IMG/VR virus record: IMGVR_UViG_3300030419_006251
Coordinates: 64,001-128,000 of that record
Source: a virus
Lineage: Duplodnaviria > Caudoviricetes
DNA length: 64,000 nucleotides
Reading direction: 5' to 3' (one strand)
The position numbers and the translations under genes are program-made. The notes beneath the pieces are model-generated. The model ran no database searches. It was given only the letters and a program-made list of their open reading frames with translations, and had not been told where the DNA came from. This document shows positions 20,892 through 35,032 of this stretch, one piece after another (the stretch's first letter is position 1; each line of letters opens with the position of its first letter).

Positions 20892-21350
20892 TTACACCAA
20901 TTTACTCCAATTTTTTGAGGCACCAAAGAAAGCGCCGATGTCTACACCGGAATCTCCAGGGTCTACGCCCGCCAAAGCTCCCGGAGCGCTTGGGCCGGCA
21001 TCCGGAGAGCCGGCTCTTTTAAGGGGCTCTGTTCCTTCAAACAGGTCGACACCATTATAGGCGTCTTTTCCAACAGCGCTGGACATCTGATGTCTAGATT
21101 CCATAATCTTTCTTCTTCTTTCGCGATCTGCCTCGGCAGCGGCTCGAAGTTGTTCTTTTTCTGTAGGCGTATTTCTCGCTTGTGGGGCGCGCGATTCCAC
21201 TATGGGAGTAACGCCAGCAGAATGCACTCCGACCATTACCTCAGTTACGATTCCAGACAAAACACCTTCTTCTAGAATAACCTCTTTTATACACTCTTTA
21301 ATCAGTGGTCTCAATATTTTTTTTAAATCTTGATTATTCATTTTAGTCAC
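20892..21350 (-). CDS. Hypothetical protein (head module)
   Basis: Overlaps the protease stop and abuts bS21. N-terminal LKKILRPLIKECIKE resembles the leader of the MKITK family. Confidence 0.7.
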   Translation of the reverse strand: MTKMNNQDLKKILRPLIKECIKEVILEEGVLSGIVTEVMVGVHSAGVTPIVESRAPQARNTPTEKEQLRAAAEADRERRRKIMESRHQMSSAVGKDAYNGVDLFEGTEPLKRAGSPDAGPSAPGALAGVDPGDSGVDIGAFFGASKNWSKLV

Positions 21351-21957
21351 TCAATATATCATTTAAAATACGATTTATTCTATCTGATTTTGTAAAAACA
21401 TTTGATAAATTTAAATTCTTTGCTTCTTTAATCATATAGGCTTCGTTTGTCGACGGTTCAGATACCATATCAAAACAGATAAGTTGAAAATCATCTTCGA
21501 CAATTGTCTTTCCCTTGCTTTCAGTCACAGAGCCCAAACCTCTAGAAGAAATTCCGAGTTTAACCCCTGCTTTTACCAATTCTTGCAATATCTTACCAGA
21601 TGGAGTATCTAAACATTTAATTTTACCCATAACTGCGTTCGGATTATCTTTGTCCCACCATACCTCAGTAACTAAGTGAGAAGCATTTTTGAGATTTATA
21701 ACTTGTTCGTCTGGATGATCTAATTCGCCCAGTGCACGACTTTCATCAATAAGTTTTTGATAGTTTTTCATTTCCCTTTCTAATATGTGTTTAGGATACA
21801 CTCGGCCATTGCCGTTTTTAGCCTCGGCTTCTTGTAGTTTTCCAGATAATATTACTCCGCCGCCAACGACAAACTCTTTTTCGGACTCAGTTAATAAGTC
21901 CGGGCAAGAGCCTCCATCGCAAAGCTCATAAAATTCTCTTAATAATTTTTTGCTCAT
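21343..21957 (-). CDS. gp21: Prohead core protease (T4 gp21 family)
   Basis: KNGNGRVYP..IL.RE, ALGELDHP, NASH, GISSRGLGSV and DF.LICFD.VSEPST..AY motifs. Confidence 0.95.
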   Translation of the reverse strand: MSKKLLREFYELCDGGSCPDLLTESEKEFVVGGGVILSGKLQEAEAKNGNGRVYPKHILEREMKNYQKLIDESRALGELDHPDEQVINLKNASHLVTEVWWDKDNPNAVMGKIKCLDTPSGKILQELVKAGVKLGISSRGLGSVTESKGKTIVEDDFQLICFDMVSEPSTNEAYMIKEAKNLNLSNVFTKSDRINRILNDILSD

Positions 21958-25738: not shown

Positions 25739-27325
25739 TTAACCTTTATATAACCATTTATATTGTTCGTAGTCTTTTTTTGCGTTATCAAACCTATCTA
25801 AATCTTCTTCTCTCTTATAACCTTCCATCCCTTTGATAGTTGTATTAATGGTTGTATTTGATACAAGCATAGAATTCAATAAAGCTTTTTTATATTCTAC
25901 ATCCCTTTTATTAACTTGTAAAGCCGTATCTCTAACCCAACAACCGATTGCCAACGCCATAATTAAATCATCATTATATCCCCTCATAGCTTGTGGCTTT
26001 CCGTTATACCAAATAAATGTGGTTATCTCCTTAAATGTTCTCTGCGAATAAATAGTAATTAGTTTGTTTCTTATGAACTCTTCAAATTTTGCTACAATAA
26101 TTGGTCTAGTTTTTGTAGAGGTCGTAAACCCTGGAACTGAGTTTGTCATTGACTCAGCCTGATATTGTTCTACAAACTCGTGAGAACTCTTTATTGAAAA
26201 ATACAAATTTGAGTATTCTAGATCGATCAATTTTTCCAGTACCGATATTCCAACGCCCACATTCTCTACTATTAACAAGCATTTTCCGTATTCTGATCCG
26301 GCCTGATATAATATCCTAGAATACATATCTAAGCTGGGCTTACCTTGGTACTCCGCTACTACTTCCATGGTTTCCAGTTTAATGACATGAAATGTCGAGT
26401 TGTCTGCTCCGTCACCTCTCGCAACATCAGCTACTAACAGATATGTGCTCTCGGCCTGATATTTCTCCCATATCCAAAAATTTCTATCAAATCCCGTTCT
26501 GTACACAGGGTCTTTAGTTATTGTGTCCATCCACGCAATGTCGTCTGGATGTATTACAGTTTCACCAGAAGTGTTGAAGTTACATTGAAGTTCTTGCGCA
26601 ATTTCTCTAGAGGACATATTTTTGGTTTCGCGCTCAAACCATGCCTGATCACGATCCGGATGTACATCCCATGGTAAATTTACTGGATGAAATTCGTTTT
26701 CTTCAAGCTCTGCTTCAGAGTATATTTTGTGAAACCAATTACCAACACCATTTGGTGTAGAGAGCGCAATACAACGACCACCAGTAGATAGTGTAGGATA
26801 AAGGCCGGCCCATAATTCTTCTAAGCCCTCAACATGCGCAGCCTCGTCAATTACCAATAATGAAAGAGCTTCGGAACGGCCAGCATCACCAGAAGTTGAG
26901 GATGCCTTGATTTGAGAGCCGTTAGAAAGCTCAAACGAAGTCCTATTGTCAATTGAAATATCAGCGATCTGGAGCCATTCAGGCATTCTCTTAATGATTG
27001 CCTTAACCTTTTTAACCAAGTTAGATGCCGTTCCGAATTTTGTAGCTACAACAAGAATATTTTTGTCGCGATGAAACATCATAAGCCACGCAACATAGCC
27101 AGCTGTAATAGTGGATATTCCAAGCTGACGGGCTTTTAGTATAACCGTAAATCGATGATCATTATAGCTTTTTAAGAGATCCGACTGAAAGTCGTATGTC
27201 CGAAATGGAATTAAGCCTTTTTGCGGATGAGAGATTCTGGCGTAATTGTTCAAGAAGTAACTGGAGTCTTTGCCACATTTAACAATCTCTTTCAAAACTT
27301 CTTCTTTTGAAAGTCTATATGTCAT
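25739..27325 (-). CDS. gp17: Terminase large subunit (T4 gp17 family)
   Basis: Q-motif region (YDFQ), Walker A ILKARQLGIS, Walker B LLVIDEAAHV, coupling motif STPNG, nuclease ADVARGDGADNS and terminal NDDLIMA. Confidence 0.96.
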   Translation of the reverse strand: MTYRLSKEEVLKEIVKCGKDSSYFLNNYARISHPQKGLIPFRTYDFQSDLLKSYNDHRFTVILKARQLGISTITAGYVAWLMMFHRDKNILVVATKFGTASNLVKKVKAIIKRMPEWLQIADISIDNRTSFELSNGSQIKASSTSGDAGRSEALSLLVIDEAAHVEGLEELWAGLYPTLSTGGRCIALSTPNGVGNWFHKIYSEAELEENEFHPVNLPWDVHPDRDQAWFERETKNMSSREIAQELQCNFNTSGETVIHPDDIAWMDTITKDPVYRTGFDRNFWIWEKYQAESTYLLVADVARGDGADNSTFHVIKLETMEVVAEYQGKPSLDMYSRILYQAGSEYGKCLLIVENVGVGISVLEKLIDLEYSNLYFSIKSSHEFVEQYQAESMTNSVPGFTTSTKTRPIIVAKFEEFIRNKLITIYSQRTFKEITTFIWYNGKPQAMRGYNDDLIMALAIGCWVRDTALQVNKRDVEYKKALLNSMLVSNTTINTTIKGMEGYKREEDLDRFDNAKKDYEQYKWLYKG

Positions 27326-27346: not shown

Positions 27347-27535
27347 CTATTTACCTTTACGCTCGTGAAGCTCGGCCATAACTTCTGCTCTGAGTTCCTT
27401 TAAATCTCTAATTGCTTCCATGGCGGACTTTCTCACTCTACGGCCGGCCGAAGCGTTACCTTTATCAAACTTTTCTGCGTCTCTAACCGCCAAAGAAAGT
27501 TCGCTAAGAATTTCCTGTAATCTTTCCAATACCAT
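27347..27535 (-). CDS. Histone H1-like nucleoid protein (Hc1 N-terminal domain family)
   Basis: DAEKFDKGNASAGRRVRK....I....KELR matches the Hc1/bacterial 'histone H1' signature (D..K...GN.AAG.R.RK). SD AGGAG. Confidence 0.78.
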   Translation of the reverse strand: MVLERLQEILSELSLAVRDAEKFDKGNASAGRRVRKSAMEAIRDLKELRAEVMAELHERKGK

Positions 27536-27536
27536 C

Positions 27537-28115
27537 TTACTTCTCCTTTCTAGTTACATTCTTTGGCTTTTTAGTGTTGGGATACTTGTCTTTGCCAATT
27601 GCCAAAAACTTCTTGATTGCCGCGTCCAGCCTTTCTTCGGAGGAAGAGCCCTCTTCATAATTAGGATCCCGCTCGACATCCGATAAGCCGCCAATTTTAT
27701 AATATCTAAAGGCCTGAACCCAAGCTCTAACGCGAGAAGTGCTTTGCACATCTACCTGAACTTCCGCATCGGGGCTTAGCGTTAGTGAGTTTCCAGTTAC
27801 TTTTTTGTACTCTTTCTTAAGAAATTTAGCAATATCGTTAATCATATCTTCTATATTAGATTCAAATTTGCTGTCGTGAATATCTTTAATTTTAATCTCA
27901 CCATGATAATGAATGCAAAGTAATGGGCCTTGAAACTTAATGCGAAAGCCGTCTAATACTCTAGAATCCAAGATCGGGTCGCCCTCTTCTCTCTTGAGGC
28001 CAACTTTGTGTTCTTCTCCATCGAGAGAGTACTTTTTATCGTGGGCGCCGTCATAAGAGTTTGCAGCTGCCTGCGCGATTCCTCTAATAATGTCTAATGT
28101 ATTTGATTTTGCCAT
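27537..28115 (-). CDS. Hypothetical protein upstream of Hc1 and terminase
   Basis: Compact ORF with AAGGA upstream, coupled to the Hc1 gene. No family recognised. Confidence 0.7.
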   Translation of the reverse strand: MAKSNTLDIIRGIAQAAANSYDGAHDKKYSLDGEEHKVGLKREEGDPILDSRVLDGFRIKFQGPLLCIHYHGEIKIKDIHDSKFESNIEDMINDIAKFLKKEYKKVTGNSLTLSPDAEVQVDVQSTSRVRAWVQAFRYYKIGGLSDVERDPNYEEGSSSEERLDAAIKKFLAIGKDKYPNTKKPKNVTRKEK

Positions 28116-28131
28116 TTATTTGTTTCCTTGC

Positions 28132-28233
28132 TTATTTTTTACAATCACAACTGTCACATCCACAACAGCCGCAACAGCAACAACAGTGTTTGTCATTCAA
28201 TAAGTTTACTAATCTGTGTAATACTTTTTTCAT
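28132..28233 (-). CDS. 33-aa cysteine-rich, metallothionein-like peptide (not in ORF track)
   Basis: Manual translation: MKKVLHRLVNLLNDKHCCCCCGCCGCDSCDCKK*. AAGGA upstream and ACTAATTA 21 nt upstream. Fills an otherwise empty gap of about 180 nt. Confidence 0.72.
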   Translation of the reverse strand: MKKVLHRLVNLLNDKHCCCCCGCCGCDSCDCKK

Positions 28234-28253
28234 TTTGTTTGCTTTCCTTATTA

Positions 28254-28261
28254 TAATTAGT
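28254..28261 (-). promoter_or_regulatory. ACTAATTA candidate late promoter heading the peptide-Hc1-terminase-portal unit
   Basis: 21 nt upstream of the ATG at 28233. Confidence 0.55.
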
Positions 28262-28297
28262 TACTTGTTTGTCTCTTCGACAATTCTTTTTCCTTCT

Positions 28298-28669
28298 TTA
28301 TGGGAACATCGCCTTCACATATTGAAACACTTCCATCTTTGCTCGCTCAAATTCCTCTTTATCTTCACCAAAGTATCCTGATGCGAACCACTGATCGACA
28401 TCCTCAACTAAAATTCTATCATATTCCCACATCTTGCCGAGGCCGGTCGCTTTGTTCGCTTCCTCCATCATTTCGTACAAAGGTTCAGACAAAGGGCTTT
28501 TCCAACTAGCTCTAACTCTATCAGACATGCCCTCGCTTATCGACTTTCCGCTTCTTGTATGGTTGCCTGGGGTTGTATATTCAACCAACGCATCAATGGC
28601 ATTAGACATGCTTGCAAGTATATTTATTGCCTCTTGAATTTGCTTTTGTTTATTATTTTTATTGCTCAT
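28298..28669 (-). CDS. Hypothetical protein
   Basis: Start moved to MSNKNNKQ at 28669 (GGAG 6 nt upstream, 11-nt overlap with the upstream stop). Confidence 0.55.
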   Translation of the reverse strand: MSNKNNKQKQIQEAINILASMSNAIDALVEYTTPGNHTRSGKSISEGMSDRVRASWKSPLSEPLYEMMEEANKATGLGKMWEYDRILVEDVDQWFASGYFGEDKEEFERAKMEVFQYVKAMFP

Positions 28670-29051
28670 TTTTATCTCCTGGGCGCCATCCGGATTCCCA
28701 TCGAGTCTCCCGATCTTCAACATACTGTACATAACACTTGAAGCAACAATCGTACTTATTCATATAAACATCATCTTTGCTACTAAAAGAGTATACAGCA
28801 CATGTAGGGCATGTACGATTACTATCTTTATTAAGTAGATTTTTCGATATCAAAAAACCACTTAATTCAATCTTCTCAATTTTTTTCTGTAGCAGGTCTG
28901 TCTTTTCTTGCAGCTTCTTTATCTGCTCTTTATATTCTTCCTCTTTTTCTTTTGTCCATAAGTTCTTAGGATTTTGTACTGCTTCTGGGCCGTACTTATC
29001 TGATATTGCCTTTTCAAGATTCGCTATATAATTTAAATCTTTTTTTCCCAT
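28659..29051 (-). CDS. Hypothetical protein with CxxC...CCxxC putative zinc site
   Basis: Start moved to MGKKDLNY at 29051 (TAATG coupling). Contains CPTC...YDCCFKCY...RW.SGWRP. Confidence 0.65.
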   Translation of the reverse strand: MGKKDLNYIANLEKAISDKYGPEAVQNPKNLWTKEKEEEYKEQIKKLQEKTDLLQKKIEKIELSGFLISKNLLNKDSNRTCPTCAVYSFSSKDDVYMNKYDCCFKCYVQYVEDRETRWESGWRPGDKNEQ

Positions 29052-29512
29052 TATCGTTGAATTTCCTGCGATGCGAACAAAACGCCCAAAGTAAGTCCGA
29101 TGCCAGTTACAATGCCGCCAGCTAGCCACCAATGATTATTTCTATTTGGTTGTTCTAAAGCCATGTCGCGATATGTGTCTATTTCTTGCTGTTTAATATC
29201 CATCAAAAGATCGTGTCTTTCCGTCAAAGAATCATAGCTAACTTGTAACATATCAAGCTGAAGTTGATATCTGGCTTCTGTCTTATTAATCTCAAATTCT
29301 ACTCGCAAATCACACTCAGACATGCTAAATTGACTTTCCGCAATCAATGTGGCAGTTGCGGCCGGATTAAATAAAGTCCCATCGAAAGGAGCCGGATCTC
29401 CTTCTTCAACATGTGTATATTGTGGTGCCTCATCTGCATATGCAATTGGTGCTGCTATTAAATTAGTTGAAATTATGAGAGTAAAAATCTTATTCCACAT
29501 ATTCAAATCCAA
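29051..29512 (-). CDS. Exported coiled-coil protein with C-terminal TM anchor (spanin-like?)
   Basis: Signal-peptide-like MWNKIFTLIISTNLIAAPIAYA|DE (start may be 29500), a coiled coil, and C-terminal WWLAGGIVTGIGLTLGVLFAS. Confidence 0.55.
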   Translation of the reverse strand: MDLNMWNKIFTLIISTNLIAAPIAYADEAPQYTHVEEGDPAPFDGTLFNPAATATLIAESQFSMSECDLRVEFEINKTEARYQLQLDMLQVSYDSLTERHDLLMDIKQQEIDTYRDMALEQPNRNNHWWLAGGIVTGIGLTLGVLFASQEIQR

Positions 29513-34079: not shown

Positions 34080-34765
34080 TATTTATCAAGCCCTTTTCCG
34101 CCCGTAGTTCCATCGAGAAGGGCCTGCAACTGCCCTAGGGCGCCCTCTGCATCTCCTTGCTTCAGCTTGCGCACAGCCTCCTCTACGGTCGATCTAAGCA
34201 CATCTTCGTAGGAAGGTTCTCCCATACTGGGATCATGTATAATGTCTTGACCACCAAGCTGGGCCATGGCGCTTTGACCTTGTTCTGTTAAATAATAAAG
34301 CTCTTCAGAAATAATACTTGAAAGCGATTGTTTTGTGAATTTGACTTTTCTATGCTCTCCAAGTCCAATTGCTACCGGCTGAGAAGGCATCAGTTCATAT
34401 TCCAGAAAGCTTCGGACAGAGTTAAGATAATCGGAGGCTTTCGTTAATTTAGACTGGACCCATGCTTGTAATTCGTCGTCCTCACTCACCAATCCTTTGA
34501 GCATACCGGCATTTTGCATAATCTGCTGTAGTTGTGATAAGGCCATTCTTCCTTCGTGATCATGATGATCATCAGACATAGACATATCGCCGCTTCCAGC
34601 ATATGAGGGGTGCTGTACTGCCGGTCCGTGTCCCATTGAGCCGTGTCCCATGTCCGGCATCATTTCTACATGACCTTGCATTGACATGTCGCCGCAGCCA
34701 CCCTCGGCTAATCTTGCTTTTTCTTCAGCAATAAGCTGTTTAAGTTGTGTTTTTGTGATTTTCAT
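34079..34765 (-). CDS. MKITK-family protein with His/Met-rich segment
   Basis: MKITKTQLKQLIAEE leader, GHVEMMPDMGHGSMGHG...DDHHDHEG segment and a second leader-like KVKFTKQSLSSIISEEL. Confidence 0.7.
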   Translation of the reverse strand: MKITKTQLKQLIAEEKARLAEGGCGDMSMQGHVEMMPDMGHGSMGHGPAVQHPSYAGSGDMSMSDDHHDHEGRMALSQLQQIMQNAGMLKGLVSEDDELQAWVQSKLTKASDYLNSVRSFLEYELMPSQPVAIGLGEHRKVKFTKQSLSSIISEELYYLTEQGQSAMAQLGGQDIIHDPSMGEPSYEDVLRSTVEEAVRKLKQGDAEGALGQLQALLDGTTGGKGLDK

Positions 34766-34768
34766 TTT

Positions 34769-35032
34769 CTATTCCCCTAATCCGTAATCTCGGCAAGGTT
34801 CGGCATGTCGTCTACCCACAAGCTTACCGCCCATTGCTTCATCAGCGGCCCTTAACGCGTCTTCGGCTTCCTGCGGCCAGTAGTTTTTCATTTTTTGACA
34901 ATCTTCGCCTGCCTCTATGAAAGCCTTCCTCTTTGCTTCCATCAGCTTGTGATAGTCGGAAGGGGGCGGTGCCATCGTTTTTTCAAGCTCTTCCTTGATA
35001 ATCTGCCTGAGTTGTGATTTTGTGATTTTCAT
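34769..35032 (-). CDS. MKITK-family small protein
   Basis: MKITKSQLRQIIKEEL leader, coupled to its neighbours. Confidence 0.7.
   Translation of the reverse strand: MKITKSQLRQIIKEELEKTMAPPPSDYHKLMEAKRKAFIEAGEDCQKMKNYWPQEAEDALRAADEAMGGKLVGRRHAEPCRDYGLGE

Follow-up and report, generated by a model that had tools for sequence, protein, structure and literature searches.

Whether a 33-codon reading frame lodged between two phage genes can be a gene in its own right, and what a product with ten cysteines in fifteen residues would do, is the question raised by a minus-strand open reading frame (ORF; 28233..28132) in the viral DNA examined here. This DNA, referred to as the window, is a stretch of 64,000 nucleotides that comprises bases 64001–128000 of a 200,760-bp IMG/VR virus record (IMGVR_UViG_3300030419_006251), rated complete and with 42% GC. 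The original prediction, made from the letters of the window alone, had described the ORF as a metallothionein-like micro-gene heading the terminase-portal transcription unit. The micro-gene is genuine, conserved and unannotated, and its architecture is metallothionein-like yet distinctive. From the comparisons described below we lean towards a trans-acting micro-protein in which an amphipathic helix would be joined to a metal-thiolate cluster domain, and which may act close to DNA.

The micro-gene and its immediate signals

The ORF runs from ATG to TAA over 33 codons and its product is MKKVLHRLVNLLNDKHCCCCCGCCGCDSCDCKK. Residues 1–16 make up an N-terminal amphipathic segment containing H6, R7, L8, N10, N13 and H16, residues 17–31 constitute the Cys10 domain, with 10 Cys per 15 positions encoded by eight TGT and two TGC codons, and the final two residues are KK. 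The micro-gene occupies a 182-nt gap between two genes of 144 and 192 amino acids (aa), all on the minus strand, and its stop codon (28134–28132) is followed by 16 nt to the ATG of the 192-aa gene. The ORF is thus as originally described with respect to position, length, Cys content, its own Shine-Dalgarno (SD) sequence and the distance to the next start codon. The features of this gap and its borders are as follows.

28132..28233, minus strand: coding sequence of the micro-protein, 33 codons plus TAA, based on the ORF, 154 homologues, invariant columns and synonymous variation
28242..28249, minus strand: SD-like sequence AAGGAAAG of the micro-gene, with 11 nt from the AAGGA core to the ATG
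28251..28261, minus strand: box ACTAATTATAA, invariant in the window and in the related loci L002, L004 and L005, in which it directly precedes the 192-aa gene
28123..28129, minus strand: second SD, AAGGAAA, for the 192-aa gene (ATG at 28115), unpaired in the RNA fold
28298..28732, minus strand: 144-aa gene, upstream of the micro-gene; its counterparts in relatives lie directly against the 192-aa gene
27537..28115, minus strand: 192-aa gene, of no confident family, with 516 relatives in IMG/VR; used as the anchor for finding relatives, and no conserved partner of the micro-gene

The length of a single ORF of this size is not significant, and the reality of the gene rests on its conservation.

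Family definition and selection

The family was assembled from marine viral and metagenome contigs, including those of Tara Oceans, and contains at least 154 distinct peptides of 28–51 aa. Degenerate DNA pattern scans were preferred, as a protein-cluster search gave only 8 representatives, small ORFs being under-called and the family collapsing at 50% identity. The consensus is MKxxLH[RK]LxNLFNxxH-CCCCCGCCxC followed by a tail. A degenerate scan of IMG/VR for CCCCCGCCGC returned mostly repeats in other frames, together with four small ORFs with the same N-terminus. Scanning by the N-terminal motif plus three Cys gave 34 viral loci; when the scan was anchored on the N-terminus with one Cys fixed, 31 of those 34 were recovered and all 31 carried the full CCCCCGCC. 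The scan for the Cys core (N-x-x-H-C5-G-C2) identified 68 viral loci and at least 120 metagenome loci, and among the matches listed the MKxxLH[RK]LxNLFNxxH N-terminus was present in 117/117 complete metagenome ORFs. The scans anchored on the N-terminus and on the core therefore return the same family, and both halves of the peptide always occur together.

Residues that the search patterns left free are retained nearly throughout. H6, N10 and C26, which were free in the core search pattern, are kept in 153, 150 and 153 of the 154 peptides respectively, and L8 in 143, while C18–C24 and G22 were unconstrained in the N-terminus-anchored scan yet are invariant. The codons beneath these residues are scrambled: every Cys column has a TGT:TGC ratio of about 40:60, Gly22 uses all four codons, and R7 and L8 use five codons each. 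Across columns C19–C26 the proportion of nonsynonymous change (pN) is 0.004 with synonymous sites saturated. An SD-like motif precedes 57/59 distinct homologue contexts, compared with 20% of random ATGs. By these measures of conservation the micro-gene is real, and bears the marks of a translated protein under strong purifying selection.

These data also dispose of the simplest alternative, a degenerate (TGT)n microsatellite or a chance ORF in an intergenic spacer. The ORF is short, its Cys run is in nucleotide terms a trinucleotide repeat that has decayed, and the closest relatives of the window are without it; against this stand 154 homologues in which start, SD, length and amino-acid sequence have been kept although synonymous sites are saturated. 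Invariant residues, scrambled synonymous sites and the SD therefore argue that the element is no microsatellite, DNA motif or chance ORF, and the conservation data exclude this candidate, leaving it a probability close to nil. The original prediction had noted that the mixture of TGT and TGC spoke against a pure microsatellite, and the same mixture is found in every Cys column of the family; its suggestion that a genuine gene had been overlooked owing to its size is likewise borne out by the 154 homologues.

The family is restricted to a clade of uncultured marine myoviruses of roughly 175–290 kb and was previously unannotated. Megablast of the region gave no match in cultured phages, and tblastn with the peptide or with a protein of the neighbouring MKITK family (described below) gave none either, with the limit that the low-complexity filter may hide the Cys run. 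A homologue search with a 50-aa family member returned only itself. The papers searched contained no description of the family or its motif, and no characterised cysteine-cluster or metallothionein-like phage peptide, in agreement with the earlier statement that no characterised phage counterpart was known.

A relocating cassette

The site occupied by the micro-gene was compared in 80 of the 516 IMG/VR loci that carry relatives of the 192-aa gene, and a Cys-rich small ORF 5' of that gene was found in 0/80. At the site the closest relatives are L002 and L003 (87% aa identity for the neighbouring gene), together with L004 and L005, and in these a short spacer carrying box ACTAATTATAA and one ribosome binding site (RBS) separates the upstream gene from the 192-aa gene. 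The complete genome G009, whose large terminase subunit (TerL) is 80% identical to that of the window, has no ORF at the syntenic site, where the flanking genes overlap. The original prediction had named the lack of a syntenic Cys-rich ORF in relatives as a finding that would count against it and, taken literally, this is what L002–L005 and G009 show at the exact site. The comparison identifies the following insertion.

28125..28243, minus strand: inserted segment of about 119 nt, containing the micro-gene body and a second copy of the RBS region; absent from L002–L005 and G009

The limits of this segment are uncertain by a few nucleotides, AAGGA(A/T)AACAAA being repeated at both ends. The nearest homologue, L173, has 86% nucleotide identity to the window over the first 78 nt of the ORF and nothing in common outside it, and therefore the movable unit is essentially the ORF with its RBS. 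The flanks of the nearest homologues have no homology outside the ORF, hence no donor or mobile-element boundary is definable.

The micro-gene is a relocating accessory cassette which, in the same clade, is often found within the same interval between Rad50 and TerL. Seven genomes of 175–290 kb that bear it have TerL proteins 49–80% identical to that of the window. It is single-copy in 5/5 genomes checked for the core, at a different place in each, and its distance from TerL varies (about 1 kb, 3.5 kb, 11.5 kb and >80 kb); like the window copy, several others are located between Rad50 and TerL, but they are flanked by different genes. No exact core match was found in five incomplete relatives, the nearest one included, and the gene is therefore accessory. 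In L189 the micro-gene is duplicated in tandem with the copies about 100 nt apart, one of them degenerate, with a truncated N-terminus and the frame lost after CCCCCGCC.

A search of prokaryotes at one genome per species (185,579 species) matched only two contigs, both from metagenome-assembled genomes (MAGs) and about 100 kb long (100–116 kb): L173 (PBIO01000025.1, 'Halobacteriovorax sp.') and L214 (NHHP01000006.1, 'Ca. Pelagibacter sp. TMED166'). Both carry the micro-gene, arrays of the MKITK and ENWRK type described below and an Hc1-like gene, and for one of them an IMG/VR viral contig of equal length (101,404 bp) has a near-identical micro-gene copy. Both are probably mis-binned phage DNA; the Pelagibacter label of L214 could instead be a weak hint of the host. 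The assembled contigs of four marine DNA runs were short fragments, some of them representing other family members in other contexts, and no contig from these runs bridges the insertion site of the window.

Ligand conservation and predicted structure

Exactly ten Cys and two His are present in 134/154 peptides, and ten Cys in 145/154. The family has three tail layouts (C-x2-C-x-G-x-C, C-x2-G-C-C and C-C-C), across which the ligand count is kept. In L150, the sole member without C26, this residue is replaced by His, giving 9 Cys and 3 His; in L195, the sole member without H6, His is replaced by Gln and 11 Cys are present, so that both keep 12 potential ligands. The Cys domain has a high content of Gly, Ser, Asn, Lys and Asp, and across the 154 domains there is one Tyr and zero Phe or Trp, a composition characteristic of metallothioneins. 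The window peptide, with 33 aa, 30% Cys and the motifs CCCCC, CC, CxC and CxxC, conforms to the metallothionein-like character originally proposed. The conserved Cys10His2 count favours metal binding.

Structure prediction with AlphaFold2 (AF2) using the family alignment placed a helix at residues 2–11, which at low confidence supports the amphipathic N-terminal helix of the original prediction. H6, N10 and N13 would fall on one face of this predicted helix, which suggests a specific contact surface. The AT-hook has an HMGA-type GRP core, and a C-terminal RRRGRPRK-type AT-hook is found in 15/154 variants, as a subfamily add-on and not as a defining feature of the family. Such variants make sense only for a trans-acting product, and their sequences suggest that it works in the neighbourhood of DNA.

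The known proteins closest in kind are the bacterial metallothioneins SmtA/BmtA (PF02069) and MymT, which are also small, with about 30% Cys, CC, CxC and CxxC motifs and few aromatics, and are also often missed in annotation. SmtA holds a Zn4Cys9His2 cluster with His beside Cys, a close stoichiometric analogue of Cys10His2 in the micro-protein. Unlike these proteins the micro-protein is half the size, has a C5 run and a separate conserved N-terminal helix, is phage-encoded and relocating, and occurs in AT-hook variants. Short fungal and plant Cu/Zn metallothioneins, such as the 25–26-aa copper metallothionein of Neurospora and the N-terminal CCGGNCGCG blocks of plant types 1 and 2, have a 15–25-residue block rich in Cys, Gly, Ser, Asn and Lys of comparable composition; they differ in having no homology to the micro-protein, no helix-plus-His module and no C5 run.

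Several observations weigh against a metal-binding, DNA-proximal protein. The 18 remaining variants have Cys plus His totals of 11, 13 or 14, and the ligand-swap argument, which rests on two sequences, is suggestive only. Outside the helix AF2 returned coil, with a low-confidence mean predicted local distance difference test score (pLDDT) of 59, and such a model says little about a fold that depends on metal. Five consecutive Cys are atypical for known metallothioneins and recall streptolysin-S-type cores or acylation strings, and an even, fixed number of Cys would also fit five disulfides. The AT-hook, with its GRP core flanked by Arg/Lys, is absent from the window copy. No family match for the micro-protein was obtained in Pfam, NCBIfam, PHROGs, a PDB sequence search or the ESM Atlas; metallothionein profiles in particular (Pfam Metallothio_* and SmtA PF02069) gave no hit even at E <= 10, with none in NCBIfam or PDB. 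A complex prediction with 2 copies and 4 Zn, which scored 0.03 against a mark of 0.42, speaks neither for nor against metal binding.

Proposed mode of action

In the mechanism towards which we lean, a 15-residue N-terminal amphipathic helix would be followed by H16 and a ten-Cys domain of 15–17 residues. The ten thiolates, probably with the two His (12 ligands), would wrap a polynuclear metal-thiolate cluster, with Zn(II) or Cu(I) the most likely metal and an Fe-S cluster possible. The peptide would owe its fold to this cluster, and the invariant polar face of the helix (H6, R/K7, N10 and N13) would then contact a conserved partner. The site of action is proposed to be at or near DNA, because of the AT-hook variants, or to lie in head assembly and packaging; in the window the micro-gene shares an operon-like run with the Hc1-like histone and terminase genes, and expression may be late; the metal buffering or chaperoning originally suggested would be possible functions. 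The gene itself is a compact cassette that brings along an RBS and moves from one intergenic site to another within co-directional operons of hyperplastic regions. In the window it was inserted after the promoter/RBS and ahead of the 192-aa start codon, just 5' of the Hc1-like, terminase and portal genes.

A bolder version, which the sequence data make conceivable and which we regard as unlikely, is that the micro-protein would be the first representative of a novel class of metalloproteins in phages. Here a peptide of about 3.5 kDa, bearing a polynuclear thiolate cluster of Zn/Cu (or Fe-S), would work at DNA or close by, with the AT-hook variants anchored directly in the minor groove. Packaging or co-delivery together with the genome is conceivable, as for the capsid-targeted proteins in whose gene arrays the micro-gene resides, and the peptide could serve in protection of phage DNA or in metal supply to, or stripping from, a conserved host or phage target.

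Alternative explanations

The even number of Cys, fixed at ten in 145/154 peptides, is what would be expected if the product were a redox or disulfide peptide whose ten Cys pair up into five disulfides, within or between molecules, and so might cross-link or shield DNA or parts of the virion outside the reducing cytoplasm. Virion or late genes are often its neighbours (tail sheath in L164, terminase and portal in the window, and the putative capsid-targeted arrays), and at one locus a cysteine synthase-like gene lies on one side of it and thioredoxin on the other. Metal ligation nevertheless accounts better for the two invariant His and for the replacement of Cys by His in L150, five adjacent Cys are ill suited to intrachain disulfides, and there is no signal peptide, hence the peptide is made in the reducing cytoplasm; we consider a disulfide role improbable. 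The thioredoxin and cysteine synthase-like genes, which flank the micro-gene in L159, could also accompany an Fe-S carrier or scaffold, a special case of metal binding in which the Cys-rich tail would transiently hold a [2Fe-2S] or [4Fe-4S] cluster destined for Fe-S enzymes of the phage or its host. In L329 the gene immediately 3' of the micro-gene is IscA/HesB-like, and IscU- and IscA-like genes lie 1.4–2 kb upstream in L214. These contexts are 3 of about 185, searches of the window genome for IscU (NifU_N) and IscA (Fe-S_biosyn) found none, and the peptide has no similarity to known Fe-S scaffolds, which makes such a carrier appear quite improbable.

Two further explanations do without a metal. 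A cis-acting, Cys-sensing leader ORF would tune downstream translation through ribosome pausing at Cys codons when Cys-tRNA is scarce. Precedent exists in the polycysteine leaderless small ORFs of mycobacteria, which act in cis via an RBS-sequestering RNA duplex 5' of Cys-metabolism genes, the peptide not being the effector (Canestrari et al., bioRxiv 10.1101/834739). Like these, the micro-gene is a short ORF with consecutive Cys codons just 5' of another gene: in many copies the stop is fused with the downstream start (ATGA) or only a few nucleotides away from it, one copy precedes the cysteine synthase-like gene, and at least seven copies (five viral and two metagenome by motif, three ARAGORN-confirmed) abut the 5' end of a phage transfer-messenger RNA (tmRNA), which begins 1–15 nt past the micro-gene stop. 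Unlike the mycobacterial ORFs, the peptide is under strong selection, with the non-Cys residues H6, L8, N10, N13, H16 and G22 invariant and the Cys number fixed across tail layouts, and some members gain a functional-looking AT-hook domain. The downstream genes are diverse, the cysteine synthase-like gene being downstream in only 1 of about 185 loci, and the RNA fold of 28085–28265 (minus strand) is no stabler than shuffles (z = +1.65), with the downstream SD unpaired and no RBS-sequestering structure of the mycobacterial type in the window. A leader function therefore has a slight chance of being right. The chance is very slight for a ribosomally synthesised and post-translationally modified peptide (RiPP) precursor, in which the helix would be a leader and the poly-Cys core would mature into thiazol(in)es or thioether/sulfur cross-links in the manner of streptolysin-S-like thiazole/oxazole-modified microcins (TOMMs) or radical S-adenosylmethionine (SAM) peptides. 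The layout, a leader-like segment before a Cys-rich core, resembles that of such a precursor, many members have F-x-x-x-L at residues 4–8, and the CCCCC run resembles the cores of the TOMM precursors SagA and ClosA. The core of the micro-protein is invariant and not hypervariable, and it is better conserved than the leader, whereas typical RiPP families show the opposite; a Cys-to-His swap would be unexpected in a heterocyclised core, and the N-terminus is without detectable homology to known leaders. A search of the 200-kb window genome for YcaO (PF02624), in which positive controls were detected, found none; genes for a cyclodehydratase or dehydrogenase were found neither in the genome nor close to the micro-gene, and about 185 contexts revealed no recurrent maturase-like neighbour.

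Genomic neighbourhood in the window

In a crude gene set of the 200,760-bp genome, 172/178 genes are on the minus strand. On the same strand as the micro-gene and 3' of it, the order is 192-aa gene, Hc1-like gene, TerL, portal and, further on, the prohead protease. The remaining features of this run are as follows.

27347..27535, minus strand: Hc1-like histone H1-like DNA-binding protein, 62 aa (PF07432, E 3.1e-10), immediately upstream of TerL
25739..27325, minus strand: large terminase subunit (TerL)
21343–21957, minus strand: T4 gp21-type prohead protease (PF03420 Peptidase_S77, E 1.7e-28)

The claim that the micro-gene heads a terminase-portal unit holds in part: the Hc1-like, TerL and portal genes do lie downstream as stated, but the micro-gene is no fixed head of this unit, being a relocating accessory cassette. 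The 62-aa gene, which resembles the chlamydial histone H1-like protein, sits roughly at the position expected for the small terminase subunit and has homologues in G009 and L214. TerL of the window is at most 46% identical to those of cultured phages, the best being Flavobacterium phage immuto and Microcystis phage Mel-JY01, which makes the virus an uncultured marine myovirus with a distant resemblance to T4. The window DNA is represented in marine and seawater metagenome runs, and the runs listed for it include no RNA run.

The box ACTAATTATAA is a possible late-promoter-like element. The original prediction had reported a late motif at a 21-nt spacing; the box is conserved in L002, L004 and L005, but TAATTATAA is not enriched in the window (3 observed vs 1.65 expected). 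The 8-mer ACTATTTA, one mismatch from TAATTATAA, is enriched 5' of genes (8 upstream regions vs 0.59 expected) and may be the late-promoter core. Beyond the window, at 186–198 kb of G000, there is a cluster of near-identical sigma-70-like promoters, TCTTGACAT ... GCTATATTATA, with an RBS about 20 nt further on, which suggests an early-gene region.

Upstream of the 192-aa gene lies a second, conserved Cys-rich protein (window 28659–29132, minus strand), of 125–157 aa, with homologues in L006–L012, L025 and L074 that hold the same position relative to the 192-aa gene. It contains the motifs C-P-x-C ... K(Y/F)(D/N)CC(F/Y)xCY(I/V)Q(Y/W)V and a C-terminal ERWxSGWRP, and is probably zinc-binding.

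Neighbouring genes across the family

The micro-gene is always closely packed among genes of the same strand, from which gaps of about -20 to +50 nt separate it, and its stop often overlaps the next start (ATGA). The downstream gene starts with MK[IL]TKxQL[KR]xIIKEE in 34/65 viral and 71/117 metagenome loci, and with MKLLLENWRKYLNE in 13 further loci. Within each of these two families, MKITK and ENWRK, an N-terminus of about 15 aa is held in common and is followed by unrelated sequence; neighbours of either type have no Pfam or PHROG match. In the window MKITK genes are found at 34772–35032 and 34082–34765 (both minus strand, the latter His/Met-rich), and others occur in L097, L111, L112, L154, L166 and many further loci. 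Genes of the ENWRK type, MK(L/Q)LLENWR(K/Q)(Y/F)LNE, ending LxE, belong to the same arrays and lie downstream of the micro-gene in L146, L163, L167, L172, L178, L182, L198, L200 and L206. The His/Met-rich protein at 34082–34765, itself of the MKITK type, had been proposed to form a linked metal-handling system with the micro-protein; this is not upheld, no His/Met-rich neighbour being recurrent in 185 loci.

Cleavage of the T4 gp21 type occurs at (I/L)xE. Both the MKITK and the ENWRK N-terminal motifs end in (I/L)xE, and by analogy with T4 the proteins may be capsid-targeted internal proteins, those of the MKITK type possibly forming a hypervariable repertoire. The internal proteins of T4 carry capsid targeting sequences (review PMC9026906). 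The resemblance to the T4 system extends to the micro-gene in that it usually lies within arrays of genes with such N-termini of about 15 aa, in a phage that has an S77 protease; unlike the T4 internal proteins, the micro-protein has its own N-terminus without an (I/L)xE site or conserved Glu. Alignment of this N-terminus with the MKITK motif by hhalign found no similarity, and therefore a targeting helix in common is not supported.

Rarer neighbours of the micro-gene include a gp61-like primase, tail sheath and Rad50. The tmRNA loci include L153 (5885–6194), L189 (242–593) and L199 (302–611), and G000:C1:167534–167869 beyond the window, all on the minus strand, with tags ANNNNHFDSVRLAA, ANDNVAFDYALAA and similar; in the genome of the window itself a different small ORF occupies the place next to the tmRNA 5' end. 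At L159/L210 (1–1432) the order, in L210, is thioredoxin, micro-gene and cysteine synthase-like gene (TIGR01136, E 3e-76, below the curated cut-off). Among the AT-hook variants, L158 and L301 are followed by a gene of 284 aa, the downstream ORF of L158 starting MENIVGLGTAGCNIAEKF, with an N-terminus resembling a tubulin/FtsZ-type GTP-binding motif; other AT-hook variants have a conserved MKLNTTENLSEGDRRAIVEHF gene downstream and primase upstream.

Significance

The small proteins of phages are a largely unexplored reservoir of host-manipulating functions. The family described here is abundant in ocean viromes and is among the most constrained sequences in otherwise fast-diverging genomes, and it presents the case of a functional gene cassette of about 100 nt that takes its RBS along as it hops from one intergenic site to the next. 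The MKITK and ENWRK arrays around it may be the equivalent, in a large clade of uncultured phages, of the T4 internal protein set. The micro-protein is small enough for chemical synthesis. If it binds metal, it would add the handling of trace metals (Zn, Cu, Fe-S) to the accessory functions of marine phages, and its conserved 12-ligand logic would represent a compact natural scaffold for metal clusters.

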